In this document: positions 24,472 through 41,449 of the stretch, one piece after another | Position numbering within the stretch: the first letter of the stretch is position 1 | Layout of the letters: each line of letters opens with the position of its first letter | Translations under genes and position numbers: made by a program | NCBI GenBank assembly: GCA_034717435.1 | Contig: JAYELI010000057.1 | Location: 1-57,794, forward strand | Source of the DNA: Candidatus Omnitrophota bacterium | GTDB taxonomy: Bacteria > Omnitrophota > JAUWXU01 | Length of the DNA: 57,794 nt | Direction: 5' to 3' | Notes under the pieces: model-generated | What the model saw: the letters and a program-made list of their open reading frames with translations, nothing else | Databases searched by the model: none | What the model was told of the DNA's origin: nothing

Positions 24472-24857
24472 TGAGCCGGTCTAAAAGATTTTTAAAGTTC
24501 TGGGTTCCGTTGCTGGTTTATATGGCATTGATGTGGTTTCTTTCCTCAAGGCCGGCCAGGTCCCTGCCTTTAATGTTGTTTCCTTTCGCGGATAAAGTAT
24601 TTCATTTTCTGGAATATTTTGTCTTTGGGTTTCTCCTGGCCCGGGTGATCCAGACAGCGCAGCCAAAAACAAGGCCTAAATTGTTTATCTTTGTAATAGT
24701 GTCTGCCCTGATCTGGGGCGCTATCGATGAACTGCACCAGGCCTCTGTTCCATTACGCGACCCCAGCGTTTTTGACTTATTAACCGATTGCTTCGGAGCA
24801 GGCATCGGCCAGCTTTTGATAAAAAGGGGTCAGTCCTCGAAAATCGAAAAAGCTTGA
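24471..24857 (+). CDS. VanZ-family membrane protein
   Basis: Four TM segments with DK.FHF..YF.FG and DE.HQ motifs. Confidence 0.7.
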   Translation: MSRSKRFLKFWVPLLVYMALMWFLSSRPARSLPLMLFPFADKVFHFLEYFVFGFLLARVIQTAQPKTRPKLFIFVIVSALIWGAIDELHQASVPLRDPSVFDLLTDCFGAGIGQLLIKRGQSSKIEKA

Positions 24858-24888: not shown

Positions 24889-25836
24889 ATGGCAAGACCA
24901 TACAGATTACAAACAGAAGATTGTTTTTATCATATAACCAGCAGGGGGGATAACAAGAAGAAGATTTATGTTAGTGAATATGACTATAAAAAATTTCTAG
25001 AGTATATACTGAACGCAAAGGCGAGATTTAAATTTTATATCTATGCATACGTTTTAATGCCCAACCACTATCATTTTCTAATAAAAACTCTTCATGCAAA
25101 TTTATCAAAACTAATGCATTACATAAACGGGTCATACACAACTTACTACAATGTGAAGCGTAAAAAGTCGGGACATTTATTTCAGGGCAGGTATAAGTCA
25201 ATAGTTGTGGATACAGACAGTTATTTTTCAATATTGAGCCGGTATATTCATTTGAATCCAGTATTGGCAAAGCTTGTAAAGTTTCCGGAAGAGTACAAGT
25301 GGTCGAGTTGTAATGCTTACATCAAAAAGGAAAAAGATGAAATTATAGATAAAGGAGAAATAAATAGGGTTTTAGGAATGTCGGCCAGGCAGTATCGTCA
25401 ATTCATGATGGAAGGTTTGGGAAAAAAGGAAAATCCATTTAAAGATTTGTATGGAGGATTTATTTTGGGAGGCACAAAATTTATTCAAGATAAGTTAAAT
25501 GAGTTAAGAGAGCAAGTGGAGGGTGGGGAATTTTCTCATCAGAAAGACCTTAAAAGGTATATATCCATAAAAAGCATAGATGATTTAATGGAAAGAGAAT
25601 ATGGAAAAAGAATTAAGGAAATGCGCGCCAAAAGGACCTGGACTATGAGGAAGAAGAGAATAGCAATATATTTAATGAGAAAATTTGCGGGATTGGATAA
25701 TAAGGAAATCGGTGGAGTTTTTAGGATGAATTCTTCGGCAGTAAGTAAGGCGGCAATGAGTATTGAGAAAGGCATGAATGAAAGTAGCCAGTTGAGGAAA
25801 GAAATGAAGAAACTATTTTCGATTTTCGAGGGCTGA
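24889..25836 (+). CDS. IS200/RAYT-like HUH tyrosine (Y1) transposase fused to a DnaA domain-IV-like HTH
   Basis: YHITSRG, HUH motif PNHYHFLI, GHLFQGRYKS, YIHLNPV. The C-terminal IAIYLMRKFAGLDNKEIGGVFRMNSSAVSKA resembles the DnaA C-terminal HTH. Confidence 0.8.
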   Translation: MARPYRLQTEDCFYHITSRGDNKKKIYVSEYDYKKFLEYILNAKARFKFYIYAYVLMPNHYHFLIKTLHANLSKLMHYINGSYTTYYNVKRKKSGHLFQGRYKSIVVDTDSYFSILSRYIHLNPVLAKLVKFPEEYKWSSCNAYIKKEKDEIIDKGEINRVLGMSARQYRQFMMEGLGKKENPFKDLYGGFILGGTKFIQDKLNELREQVEGGEFSHQKDLKRYISIKSIDDLMEREYGKRIKEMRAKRTWTMRKKRIAIYLMRKFAGLDNKEIGGVFRMNSSAVSKAAMSIEKGMNESSQLRKEMKKLFSIFEG

Positions 25837-25874
25837 CCCCTTATGTTGGAGGATAGAGCCAGAGGAGGTGGGTT

Positions 25875-34346: not shown

Positions 34347-34349
34347 AAA

Positions 34350-34497
34350 CTGCAGGTTGCAGGCTGGGAAGCTGGTTTAACGTTGTCGATGCTCATATGG
34401 GTGCTCGTTTTAGAAACTAGAGGCTTGGACATAGTGAATTATCCAGCTTCCAGCCTTCAGCTTCGATACCAGTATCGACAACGACAAACGAGCTTCT
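34350..34497. repeat. About 150-nt intergenic hairpin element (AAGCTGG / GTCGATGC words), copy B, inverted relative to copy A
   Basis: The reverse complement of 34445-34497 aligns with 2676-2740. The reverse complement of 34361-34415 aligns with 2780-2817. Confidence 0.7.
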
Positions 34498-34525
34498 ATA
34501 ACTTTGATTTTGAGAAAGGTATGTT

Positions 34526-35271: not shown

Positions 35272-35646
35272 ATGAAATTAAAGTACGATAAACAAGGTTT
35301 GATCCCGGTAATAGTGCAGGACTATAAAACCAAGGAAGTTTTGATGCTGGCTTACATGAATAAGCTGGCTTTAAAAAAGACGCTGGATACAGGAAAGGTG
35401 CACTTTTTTTCCCGTTCTCGCAAGAAATTATGGCTTAAAGGAGAAACGTCAGGCCATTACCAGAGGGTTTACGAGGTCCTTTTTGATTGTGATAAGGATA
35501 CGCTTTTGATCAGGGTTCAACAGAAAGGCGGCGCCTGCCATATGGGATACAGATCTTGTTTTTATCGAAGCGCAGGCAAAAAGTGCAAGACAGTGAACGT
35601 GGTTGGCCGGAAGGTATTCGATCCGGAAGAGGTATATAAAAAGTAA
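35272..35646 (+). CDS. hisI: Phosphoribosyl-AMP cyclohydrolase (no HisE domain)
   Basis: [23 protein letters not shown] and CHMGYRSCF motifs. Confidence 0.9.
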
Positions 35647-35787
35647 GCAGTAGGCAGTAAGCAGCAGGCAGAAAGAAACACGGTAGAAAAAAATAGACAC
35701 AGATGGGCACAGAAGGAGTAATTGGCAATGTGCAGCATAGAAATATTGGTTTACTGTTTATGATTAGCAGATAAGGGGTTATTTAAA

Positions 35788-36796: not shown

Positions 36797-37573
36797 ATGA
36801 TCTTAAATAAGATATTAAGCCAGAAAAGAAAAGAGATTGAAGAGGCAAAAGCAAAAGTTTCCCAAAAAGGACTTATAGAAAAAAAATCCGATTTTCCCGG
36901 CCGGCGCGATTTCAAATCGGCAATAAGCAAAGCTCATCAAATTAACCTGATAGCTGAGATTAAAAAAGCCAGTCCTTCAAGAGGGATAATCAGAGAGGAT
37001 TTTAATCCTGTCAGGATCGCCCAGCTTTATCAAAATAGCGCGGCCCGGGCAATATCTATTCTGACTGATCAACAATTTTTTAAAGGAAGCCTTGACTATT
37101 TAAACCAGGTAAGACAGGTAGTTACTCTGCCGATTTTACGAAAAGATTTTATTATTGATGAGTATCAAATTTATCAATCTGCTTTGGCCGGGGCTGATGC
37201 CGTACTTTTGATTGCAGCTATACTTTCCGGAGAGGAATTGAACAGATTCTTATCCGTAGCATCCGGGATAGGCCTGGATGTGATTGTAGAGATTCATTCA
37301 GAAAAGGATATAGAAAAGCTTAGTCAGACAGACCCTTTGATTATCGGGATTAATAACCGGGATTTGGTTTCTTTCGAGGTTAACCTGGACACTACTGAAC
37401 GACTAATCAGATTGCTGCCTAAAGGTAAAATTATAATTTCAGAAAGCGGGGTTAAAACCCATCAGGATGTTATGAAGTTAAAAAGTTTGGGTGTAAATGC
37501 AGTATTGATTGGTGAGGGTTTTATGGAGAGCGAAGATATCAGCGCTAAGGTGAAAGAAGTGATGGGGTGCTGA
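36797..37573 (+). CDS. trpC: Indole-3-glycerol-phosphate synthase
   Basis: IAEIKKASPS, and ILRKDFIIDEYQIY. Confidence 0.9.
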   Translation: MILNKILSQKRKEIEEAKAKVSQKGLIEKKSDFPGRRDFKSAISKAHQINLIAEIKKASPSRGIIREDFNPVRIAQLYQNSAARAISILTDQQFFKGSLDYLNQVRQVVTLPILRKDFIIDEYQIYQSALAGADAVLLIAAILSGEELNRFLSVASGIGLDVIVEIHSEKDIEKLSQTDPLIIGINNRDLVSFEVNLDTTERLIRLLPKGKIIISESGVKTHQDVMKLKSLGVNAVLIGEGFMESEDISAKVKEVMGC

Positions 37574-37748
37574 TGAATTGCTAAACTGTTAAGTCCGTCG
37601 TGCGTTATGCGTATTGCGTTGTGCGCTATGCGCTGTGCGCTTTGCGTTTTGACGCTTTTAAATCCCGTTTTTCTTTAAAAAATAGTTTTTGTTTTTTTTG
37701 ACGCATTACGCACGACGCATAACGCATAACGCACAGCGCATAACGCAC
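37574..37748. repeat. Composite element: two TAAAYTGY-type words, then a GCGYTRTG octamer-array hairpin
   Basis: The left arm (37597-37655) reads gtgcgtta tgcgtatt gcgttgtg cgctatgc gctgtgcg ctttgcgt. The loop is T-rich. The right arm (37700-37748) is built of complementary words, with mismatches at the degenerate positions. Confidence 0.8.
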
Positions 37749-37771
37749 TTATTGAAAAGGATTTTGTTTAA

Positions 37772-38395
37772 ATGACCAAGGTCAAGATATGCGGGATTAC
37801 TAATTTAGATGATGCTCTGGCTGCAACCGAGTTAGGAGCAGACTTTTTGGGATTTGTTTTTAGCCAACAGAGCCCCCGGCAGATCAAGATTAAACAAGCA
37901 GTCAAGATCATCAGCTCGCTTCCCGGAAACGTATCTACGGTTGGATTGTTTGTCAACCAGCGAGGGCTGTTAGTCAAATTAGCTTCCCAAGAATGCGGTT
38001 TTAATTACCTGCAATTTCACGGAGATGAATCCCCGCATTATTGCCAGCAGATTAGAAAAGAAGTTAAGATTATCAAGGCGTTCAGGGTCAAGGACAAAGA
38101 TAGCTTAAAAAATCTTGCTGATTATGATGTTGATATATATTTGCTGGATGCTTACAACAAAGACAACTTTGGGGGAAGCGGCAGCATGTTTAACTGGGAC
38201 CTGGCAATTGAACCTAAGAAGATTGGCAAGCCGATCATTTTGGCTGGAGGCCTTACGCCTAAAAATGTAATAAAGGCCATAGAAAAAGTAAGGCCGTATG
38301 CAGTCGATGTTTCCAGCGGGATCGAGAAGGGCCCGGGCAGGAAGGACCACAAATTAATTAAGAAGTTTATTGAACAGGTTAGAAGCGCAGGTTAA
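37772..38395 (+). CDS. trpF: Phosphoribosylanthranilate isomerase
   Basis: KICGIT, LQFHGDE and DVSSGIE motifs. Confidence 0.88.
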
Positions 38396-40426: not shown

Positions 40427-41449
40427 ATGAACAAAAAACTGTATTGCTTAATTATGGCTGGCGGAGAAGGTAAGAGGTTTTGGCCCAAGAACAAGAAAAA
40501 AAAAGGAGTTTCCAAACAATTTTTTTCGATCAGGGGTAAATCCTCAATGCTTGAAGTGACATTTCAAAGAATGAAAAGGGTTACTTCCAGCAAGAGGATT
40601 TTCATAGTCATAAATAAAAAGCAGGCGGTATTTGCGAAAAAGAAAATACCTTCTTTAAGGCAAGACGCTTTTATATTGGAACCGTTTGGCCGCAATACCG
40701 CAGCGGCAATAGGACTGGCTGCTTTGCATCTCCAGATTAAAGACCCATCGGCAATTATGCTGGTTAGCCCCTGCGATCATATTATAAAAAATAATAAGAA
40801 ATTTTTACAAGCTGTCAGCCTGGCGGTAAAAACAGCTGTTTCTGGCAGTCTCTTAGTGACTATCGGGATAGAACCGGCTCATCCGGATGTGGAATATGGG
40901 TATATAAAGATTAAAAGACACCCCTCGACTTCGTCCCTCGACAAGCTCGGGACTTCGCCCGGGGCAGGGAAGACAGAAGACACCCCTCGACTTCGTCCCT
41001 CGACAAGCTCGGGACTTCGCCCGGGGCAGGGAGATCAGAAAAATAAAATATTTAAGGTTGAAAAGTTTACAGAAAAGCCGGATAGAAAAACAGCCGAGAG
41101 GTTTTTAAAAAGCGGTGATTATTTCTGGAACAGCGGTATATTTGCCTGGAAGGCGCAGGTAATATTAGATGCGATCGCCGAATATATGCCCGAGCTTTTC
41201 AAAGCGCTTTTGGAAGTTAAGAGTTCCTTTGGCTTACCCGAACAGGAAGAAGTTTTAAATAGGGCTTACAGCCGGCTTAAATGTGTGCCGATTGATTCCG
41301 GCATTATGGAGCAGGCTGAAAACGTAGTCAGCTTAAAGGCGGATTTTGGCTGGGATGACCTTGGGCACTGGGAAGACGCCAGAAAATATGCGAAGGATTT
41401 TAGGATTAGACATAGGACAAAAAAGAATAGGCCTGGCTCTAAGCGATAG
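40427..41449 (+). CDS. Mannose-1-phosphate guanylyltransferase-like nucleotidyltransferase carrying an in-frame repeat insertion
   Basis: MAGGEGKRFWP, GYGYIK and EKPD motifs. About 38 aa of repeat-encoded sequence sit between GYGYIK and EKPD. Confidence 0.75.
   Translation: MNKKLYCLIMAGGEGKRFWPKNKKKKGVSKQFFSIRGKSSMLEVTFQRMKRVTSSKRIFIVINKKQAVFAKKKIPSLRQDAFILEPFGRNTAAAIGLAALHLQIKDPSAIMLVSPCDHIIKNNKKFLQAVSLAVKTAVSGSLLVTIGIEPAHPDVEYGYIKIKRHPSTSSLDKLGTSPGAGKTEDTPRLRPSTSSGLRPGQGDQKNKIFKVEKFTEKPDRKTAERFLKSGDYFWNSGIFAWKAQVILDAIAEYMPELFKALLEVKSSFGLPEQEEVLNRAYSRLKCVPIDSGIMEQAENVVSLKADFGWDDLGHWEDARKYAKDFRIRHRTKKNRPGSKR
40916..41032. repeat. Two identical 55-nt direct repeats (40916-40970, 40978-41032; period 62 nt) inside the manC-like CDS
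   Basis: agacacccctcgacttcgtccctcgacaagctcgggacttcgcccggggcaggga occurs twice. Copy 1 is translated as HPSTSSLDKLGTSPGAG and copy 2, in another frame, as TPRLRPSTSSGLRPGQG. Confidence 0.9.

Follow-up and report, generated by a model that had tools for sequence, protein, structure and literature searches.

What separates trpC from trpF in this Omnitrophota bacterium, and does the separating sequence serve the trp operon or only reside in it? The window, which is the whole stretch of 57,794 nt that was analysed, bears the genes hisD-hisB-hisA-hisI-trpD-trpC-(gap)-trpF-trpB-trpA in this order, all on the + strand, and belongs to a genome of 1.0 Mb in 60 contigs (G000) with 43% G+C and 96% completeness. 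An earlier note made from the letters of this DNA had claimed that a 198-nt gap splits trpC from trpF, and this was confirmed, as both genes scored above their NCBIfam cut-offs and the length of the gap is exactly 198 nt (37574-37771). The parts of the junction are as follows:

36797-37573, + strand: trpC, indole-3-glycerol phosphate synthase (NCBIfam NF001377, 333.8 bits, cut-off 260)
37571-37573, + strand: TGA stop codon of trpC
37574-37581 and 37582-37589, + strand: layer 1, two octamer words of the TAAAYTGY family (TGAATTGC and TAAACTGT) directly 3' of the trpC stop
37590-37600, + strand: linker TAAGTCCGTCG, recognised by comparison of family copies
37601-37649, + strand: layer 2, left arm of seven tandem TGCGNNN heptamers (TRF period 7)
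37650-37698, + strand: layer 3, U-rich loop of 49 nt (the BLAST-aligned conserved module spans 37645-37702)
37699-37747, + strand: layer 2, right arm of seven tandem NNNCGCA heptamers (TRF period 7)
37748-37771, + strand: right flank, including the trpF ribosome-binding site AAAGGA at 37756-37761
37772-38395, + strand: trpF, phosphoribosylanthranilate isomerase (NCBIfam NF002298, 253.1 bits, cut-off 215)

The two TAAAYTGY-type words that had been noticed after the trpC TGA are indeed read at 37574-37589, and the linker at 37590-37600 ends in CGTCG, which forms the left terminus in the TGCG hairpin family; TTTCGTNN stands there in other copies. The second word family had been described as an octamer array; TRF gave a period of 7 for both arms (7.3 copies at 37601-37651 and 6.7 copies at 37701-37747), and parsing into 8-mers slips by one base per word. 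A T-rich loop flanked by complementary words was recovered as described, with 7 + 7 words counted in place of about six, and the TAA said to recur every 8 nt in the right arm was found in only three of its seven words (at 37720, 37727 and 37741), at spacings of 7 or 14 nt. The TGCG/CGCA core was unchanged in 14 of 14 words of both arms. At the far end of the gap, AAAGGA stands 10 nt 5' of the trpF ATG, and TTGTTTAA, located before this ATG, is a weak candidate for a degenerate right-arm word belonging to layer 1, with only 5 of 8 bases fitting the word RCARTTTA. A small ORF in the loop was considered and rejected, the only ORFs there being repeat-derived, at most 40 aa long and devoid of a ribosome-binding site.

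Folding of the whole gap as sense RNA gave -74.9 kcal/mol (z = -5.8, with 0 of 200 shuffles as good), the antisense RNA gave -71.2 kcal/mol (z about -6, no shuffle as good), and the hairpin core folded as DNA reached -42.7 kcal/mol (z = -6.4). Position 37601 was paired with 37747 in the MFE fold, and 52 pairs were placed across 37601-37747 by RNAfold with G-U allowed. The suggestion that only the GCG/CGC core of each word pairs held essentially: at the variable positions of mirrored words 9 of 21 agreed, against 9.4 +/- 1.6 after shuffling of the word order. The arms are thus complementary only because they are arrays of one word in opposite orientation, and are not mirror copies of each other. 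This agreement at shuffle level, together with the two neighbouring identical TAACGCA words of the right arm (37699-37747), points to independent, slippage-like growth of the arms. Sequestration of the Shine-Dalgarno sequence through pairing of the outer flanks occurred in one fold, disappeared with more sequence context and is not claimed.

The relatives offer a history of the junction. The comparison covered 25 relatives in which trpF directly follows trpC. Their gap measures -14 to +1 nt in 21 cases and 12-66 nt in the remaining four, and in a genome of the same family (G002) the two genes overlap by 14 nt. In a sister species, represented by a genome of the same genus (G001), the gap is 82 nt long, folds at -24.5 kcal/mol and is composed of two octamers (TAAACTGC and TAAATTGC), a linker ending in CGTCG (TAAGGTTCGTCG), two TGCG words, a 6-nt loop and three CGCA words. 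Since the sister species bears the octamers and the TGCG hairpin at the orthologous junction, the composite is older than the split of the two species. Read against these relatives, it is an insertion into a coupled gene pair: the comparison shows that the two genes overlapped or abutted in this family's ancestor, and that the two TAAAYTGY words plus a small hairpin of the phylum-wide TGCG-heptamer family were already present when the genus's two species split. At the trp junction the genome under study differs from its sister by longer arms and the extra loop module; the direction, growth in the former or shrinkage in the latter, is unrooted because the outgroup has no spacer.

The comparison of the junction with relatives, which the earlier note had proposed, clearly did not show an ordinary conserved spacer without repeats elsewhere, the repeat class being genome-wide. 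Its proposal of serial insertion of different families in one gap was supported by G002 and G001, and its placing of the insertions immediately after a stop codon was not, as the layers are nested. Adjacency to a stop codon is common throughout the genome to the elements, which fill the whole spacer, with medians of 8 nt from stop to stem and 24 nt from stem to the next start.

The nesting was traced through copies of the loop module, which is U-rich and 54 nt long. A copy of 98% identity lies at C46:836-889 and one of 94% at C39:17570-17623, and a diverged copy on contig C56 and two halves on C54 were also found in the genome; the U-rich strand is the sense strand in all six copies. Searches of G001, G002 and 18 other relatives found none. 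At C39:17539 and C56:15175 the TGCG hairpin is kept in both species, with the module in G000 and none in G001, and on contig C30 of G001 a TGCG hairpin lies within a TAAAYTGY hairpin where the G000 ortholog is without the TGCG hairpin. The loops of TGCG hairpins at C46:673-3033, C46:4920-4951 and C54:22597-24252 contain one to four tandem copies of a second module of ~45 nt, which begins ATAATTCCGGGGACACC and which, with GTCCCCGAAGCTG repeats, interrupts the U-rich loop module (C46, C54), and nesting on these two contigs reaches up to three levels per spacer. Serial insertion in the sense of nesting into hairpin tips or loops, and not of insertion after stop codons, is supported by these presence/absence patterns. 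A further match to the loop module, on C32, is inside a gene and was treated as chance.

Spacers of the two species were also compared beyond the trp operon. Of the 41 co-oriented junctions that are orthologous between G000 and G001, ten are filled in one species and at most 30 nt long in the other, and at least 4 of the 41 have different word families. By these counts, spacer turnover between the two is rapid, as is typical of selfish DNA. One junction is empty in G000 (C57:4154/4156, TAA-A-ATG), and its counterpart on contig C18 of G001 (L075 3461-3550) bears an 88-nt hairpin of GATTACA words, with AAATAA on both sides, which is maybe a target duplication and maybe stop-codon context. Target-site duplications were looked for by eye in filled versus empty junctions; short ones of the TAA/TAG type are possible and inseparable from stop codons, and none is claimed.

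The trp element belongs to an abundant class. TRF over the genome gave 1067 rows, with periods 7 and 8 dominant, and about 65-70 inverted array pairs, i.e. word-array hairpins, were found. In total, 61 of the 62 classifiable hairpins (of 65) lie between co-oriented genes, while convergent gaps hold none (15 gaps, >= 60 nt) and divergent gaps one (20 gaps; Fisher p = 0.01). Arrays make up 10% of intergenic DNA and are present in 153 of the 349 gaps that reach 60 nt, and 76% of array bases fall within the intergenic 9.4% of the genome. The TGCG-heptamer family numbers about 18 loci in G000 with the common termini TTTCGTNN (left) and NNACGAAA (right), the latter often running into a Shine-Dalgarno sequence (ACGAAAGGAG). 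The TAAAYTGY octamer, nearly limited to this family of genomes, is the commonest octamer family of G000, with 306 pattern hits versus 39 in G001. This hairpin architecture is common to at least eight word families that are unrelated to each other. The TGCG family is found in G001 as well, four other families of the phylum have hairpins of similar build (G038, G005, G022 and G004), the TGCG x4 pattern is present in 13 of 41 genomes, and G000 has more arrays than any relative searched.

Several other loci of the genome add to this description. Four TAAAYTGY hairpins on contig C17 (11119-11210, 11594-11700, 18694-18790 and 24888-24995) have in common a loop and also a right flank with a ribosome-binding site (AATTTAAATGAGGAGTTAAACGA); therefore, some copies carry or homogenise the downstream Shine-Dalgarno region. 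Within the his-trp cluster, the trpD-trpC, trpF-trpB and trpB-trpA gaps are 1-16 nt long, and the cluster's other two long gaps, hisI-trpD (35642-35787) and hisB-hisA (34347-34525), are also repeat-bearing, with a one-armed AGTAAGC/AGCAGGC heptamer array and a ~150-nt element that recurs elsewhere in the window.

These data are best explained, with a rough probability of 0.6, by a nested, gene-less repeat hairpin that is not a dedicated trp regulator. Following the insertion of the two words and the small hairpin between the coupled genes, each arm would have grown independently in this species from 2-3 words to 7, with replication slippage as the probable mechanism, and the 54-nt U-rich module, multiplying within G000, would have inserted into the hairpin tip. 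The element would be transcribed through in the trpDCFBA mRNA, in which the imperfect stem of ~50 bp may loop itself out and leave the trpC stop and the trpF ribosome-binding site near each other, and trpF translation would start independently at AAAGGA-N10-AUG where it had formerly been coupled through the overlap. RNase III could plausibly cut the long stem, as it does the related 23S rRNA intervening sequences, and the net fitness effect is probably small. Most likely, then, the element is tolerated selfish DNA that is transcribed through, its role as an RNase III substrate being only plausible. Some evidence speaks against neutrality: the loop module stands in one orientation in six of six copies, which could reflect function, and the class is confined to co-directional spacers. 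In addition, streamlined genomes of 1 Mb rarely retain useless DNA.

Such evidence would fit a selected intercistronic RNA element that sets the trpDC : trpFBA ratio, as an mRNA stabiliser or processing site, within a class that segments polycistronic mRNAs, for which enterobacterial REP/BIME hairpins and RNase III sites provide the model. The strict placement from stop codon to ribosome-binding site between co-oriented genes, the near absence from convergent (none) and divergent (one) gaps, the constant orientation of the loop module, the retention of the element at the trp junction in two species and the presence of RNase III in the genome (C12:4056-4712, 250 bits) all agree with this explanation. 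However, across 61 co-oriented elements the sense strand folded better in 27 and the antisense strand in 32 (Wilcoxon p = 0.35), and G-U pairs numbered 169 sense versus 181 antisense; as there is no sense-strand folding or G-U bias, no signature of transcript-level selection is seen. Moreover, the variable arm positions do not covary, the congener often has an empty orthologous junction or one filled by another family, and overlapping genes suffice in 21 of 25 relatives. A ratio-setting role is thus considered unlikely.

It is doubtful that the words are DNA or RNA binding sites for a repeat-binding protein regulating downstream translation, for which an IVP/Avd-like pentamer, S1, Csp or CsrA would be candidates, as proposed for TAACTGA repeats; binding of protein to heptamer repeats has a precedent as a hypothesis (PMC4679880). 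A constant 4-nt core in strict 7-nt phase, right ends located ~24 nt from the start codon with many copies running into the Shine-Dalgarno sequence, and conservation of the TGCG word in several families of the phylum are what such sites might look like. PF05635 (23S_rRNA_IVP) genes were present in 29 of 41 relatives, including 12 of 12 other TGCG x4 genomes versus 17 of 28 genomes without TGCG x4 (p = 0.017, the relatives not being independent of one another). Yet no PF05635 gene was found anywhere in G000, the richest in arrays among the relatives searched, the eight or more unrelated word families would need as many binders, and copy number and even family vary freely at orthologous junctions.

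A factor-independent terminator or attenuator that ends a trpDC transcript is very improbable, even though a very stable G-C-closed stem followed by UUAUUG, and one weak terminator-like match within the left arm, could suggest it. No U-tract follows the stem, CUUAUUGAAAAGG standing there instead, and other copies are likewise without one, so that an intrinsic terminator was rejected; terminator-like matches over the scanned region were at shuffle level (3 versus 3.3 expected), and the class is missing from all 15 convergent gaps >= 60 nt long, although terminators would be expected there. trpF would then also require a promoter, and a consensus scan found no promoter-like (sigma-70) site in the gap, such sites likewise numbering no more than in shuffles over the scanned region.

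An assembly artefact or a chance low-complexity stretch, conceivable for tandem repeats in a short-read MAG, where these can mis-assemble, is hardly credible given that an independent Logan assembly of run SRR26901924 matches 2423 nt including the spacer with zero mismatches, so that the word counts are not the artefact of one assembler, that an orthologous element exists in a different species, that the words are degenerate and hence assemblable, and that the fold has a z of about -6. An identity look-up for the junction returned a single contig, identical to the window, and exact-pattern scans of metagenome contigs revealed no strain-level junction variants.

If the gap is a nested repeat hairpin, the question arises of which known class it resembles and what moves it. 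No match at gathering score to Rfam 15 was found in the whole window, the sub-threshold hits being only to plant miRNA-precursor hairpins. A transposase gene in the window was examined as a possible partner of the arrays:

24889-25836: IS200-like Y1 transposase fused to a DnaA-C-type HTH (Y1_Tnp, E = 5e-14, and a weak Bac_DnaA_C match)

It is flanked at 24818-24850 and 25815-25846 by a 27-bp inverted repeat, AAGGGGTCAG-Y-CCTCGAAAATCGAAAA, that is unrelated to the word arrays, and its homologues are present in 32 of 41 relatives regardless of arrays. It was rejected as the partner on these two grounds, the different flanking repeat and homologues that do not track the arrays.

Among published repeats, the GGGAATC heptamers of Xanthomonas come closest to this architecture: 70-75 convergent (+/-) pairs per genome, capable of forming stem-loops and mostly intergenic, have been reported (Rehm et al. 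2015, PMC4692102). The majority stand between ORFs of one orientation and near the upstream ORF, with repeat length varying among related species (PMC4692102). The trp element shares with them tandem units of 7 nt in at least three copies (here 7.3 and 6.7) with a conserved core, the formation of a stem-loop and many copies in co-oriented gaps. Unlike in that class, the trp words (TGCGYNN) are not G-rich, so the architecture is the same and the sequence family is not, and no quadruplex can arise from TGCG words because they have no G-runs. In further contrast, many word families of periods 7, 8 and 10 coexist and nest in G000 and fill the spacer from stop codon to ribosome-binding site, and the conservation of positions between congeners is far below the 83% reported for Xanthomonas (PMC4692102). 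Calothrix heptamers are mentioned in the same paper (PMC4692102). In the literature, no paper on such repeats in Omnitrophota was found.

Heptamers with no inverted arrangement provide a second comparison. The TAACTGA repeats of marine Beggiatoaceae, cyanobacteria and Bacteroidetes are direct, with 169 sets versus one inverted, and have no predicted structure (MacGregor 2015, PMC4679880). Like them, the heptamers described here end a few nt before starts, overlap upstream stops, contain stop codons and stand beside many unrelated genes; different from them, the inverted pair is the defining feature of the trp-type element. The cyanobacterial STRR heptamers, reportedly described by Mazel in 1990, are said to lie in tandem between genes, and the small dispersed repeats of Nostoc, reportedly treated by Elhai in 2008, are said to be very small mobile inserts nested in other repeats. 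Both differ from the present elements in words and phylum and are likened to them by description only.

REP, REPIN and BIME elements are short inverted doublets located outside genes, which fold into hairpins as ssDNA or mRNA (Bertels and Rainey 2011, PMC3116915). REPINs offer the best analogy for the behaviour of the trp-type elements and for a possible effect on mRNA, both being abundant, different between close relatives and similar to non-autonomous mobile DNA. However, there is no invariant REP of 16-20 nt, the arms consist of degenerate words in variable number and only the loop module is conserved, and no cognate RAYT is seen in the window, the only Y1 gene of which has another flanking repeat.

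Intervening sequences (IVS) of 23S rRNA are selfish stem-loops bordered by complementary sequences, which stand in place of former small tetraloops and are cleaved by RNase III (Coxiella burnetii IVS, PMC4990558). Like an IVS of the S23p/IVP type, the trp element has complementary borders that form a long stem, would have been put in at the tip of a former small hairpin and would be transcribed together with the host RNA; unlike an IVS, it resides in an mRNA spacer and not in rRNA, is without an ORF and has arms of tandem heptamers. It is not an IVS proper, since it lies outside rRNA, lacks an ORF and is only a putative substrate of RNase III cleavage. It looks like a gene-less copy of an IVP-type cassette, a likeness drawn from the surroundings of IVP genes in the relatives. 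G001 has four PF05635 matches, three of them above the cut-off, and these three genes lie within array hairpins, each built from another word family. Among above-cut-off IVP genes, nine of nine inspected have 7-8-nt word arrays in inverted orientation on either side and so occupy the loop between them; only the one on contig C13 of G004 has TGCG/AGCG-TAC words with the GTACGAAAAGG terminus, and only the one on contig C128 of G018 has TAAAYTGY words.

From this it is tentatively proposed, as a possibility that we hold at well under even odds, that hairpins of heptamer or octamer arrays are the gene-less, non-autonomous form of an IVP/S23p cassette and that the cassette represents an uncharacterised class of mobile element inserting into hairpin tips. 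If so, its targets would be the tips of existing hairpins in transcribed DNA, i.e. rRNA helices and intercistronic spacers, and the inserts would be tolerated because RNase III or simple looping-out removes them at the RNA level. The trpC-trpF element would then record three successive tip insertions and expansions through which a coupled, overlapping pair became two cistrons with a processing site between them, and most operons of this 1-Mb genome would have been reshaped in the same way, even once its own IVP genes had been lost. If the link between IVP/IVS and RNase III holds, heptamer repeats, rRNA intervening sequences and S23p/Avd-like proteins would be connected, giving a testable account of the abundant intercistronic repeat DNA in streamlined Omnitrophota genomes.

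The trp element itself is one ordinary copy of its class, and its value resides in an unusually clean time series at the junction, which runs from an overlap in most of the phylum over the 82-nt, two-layer spacer of the sister species to the 198-nt, three-layer spacer of G000. The series would show how such hairpins grow, arms expanding independently and small modules entering the tips, and suggests that even tightly coupled biosynthetic genes tolerate such inserts.

Two further observations concern other kinds of loci. At C9:4245-4564 and C34:9934-10300 of G000, tRNA genes lie between two word-array hairpins or adjoin one; therefore, RNA genes, and not just protein genes, are flanked by the elements. 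In the window, at 40908-41040, a 62-nt unit is repeated 2.1 times (93% matches, TRF) within a sugar-nucleotidyltransferase ORF (40427-41449).
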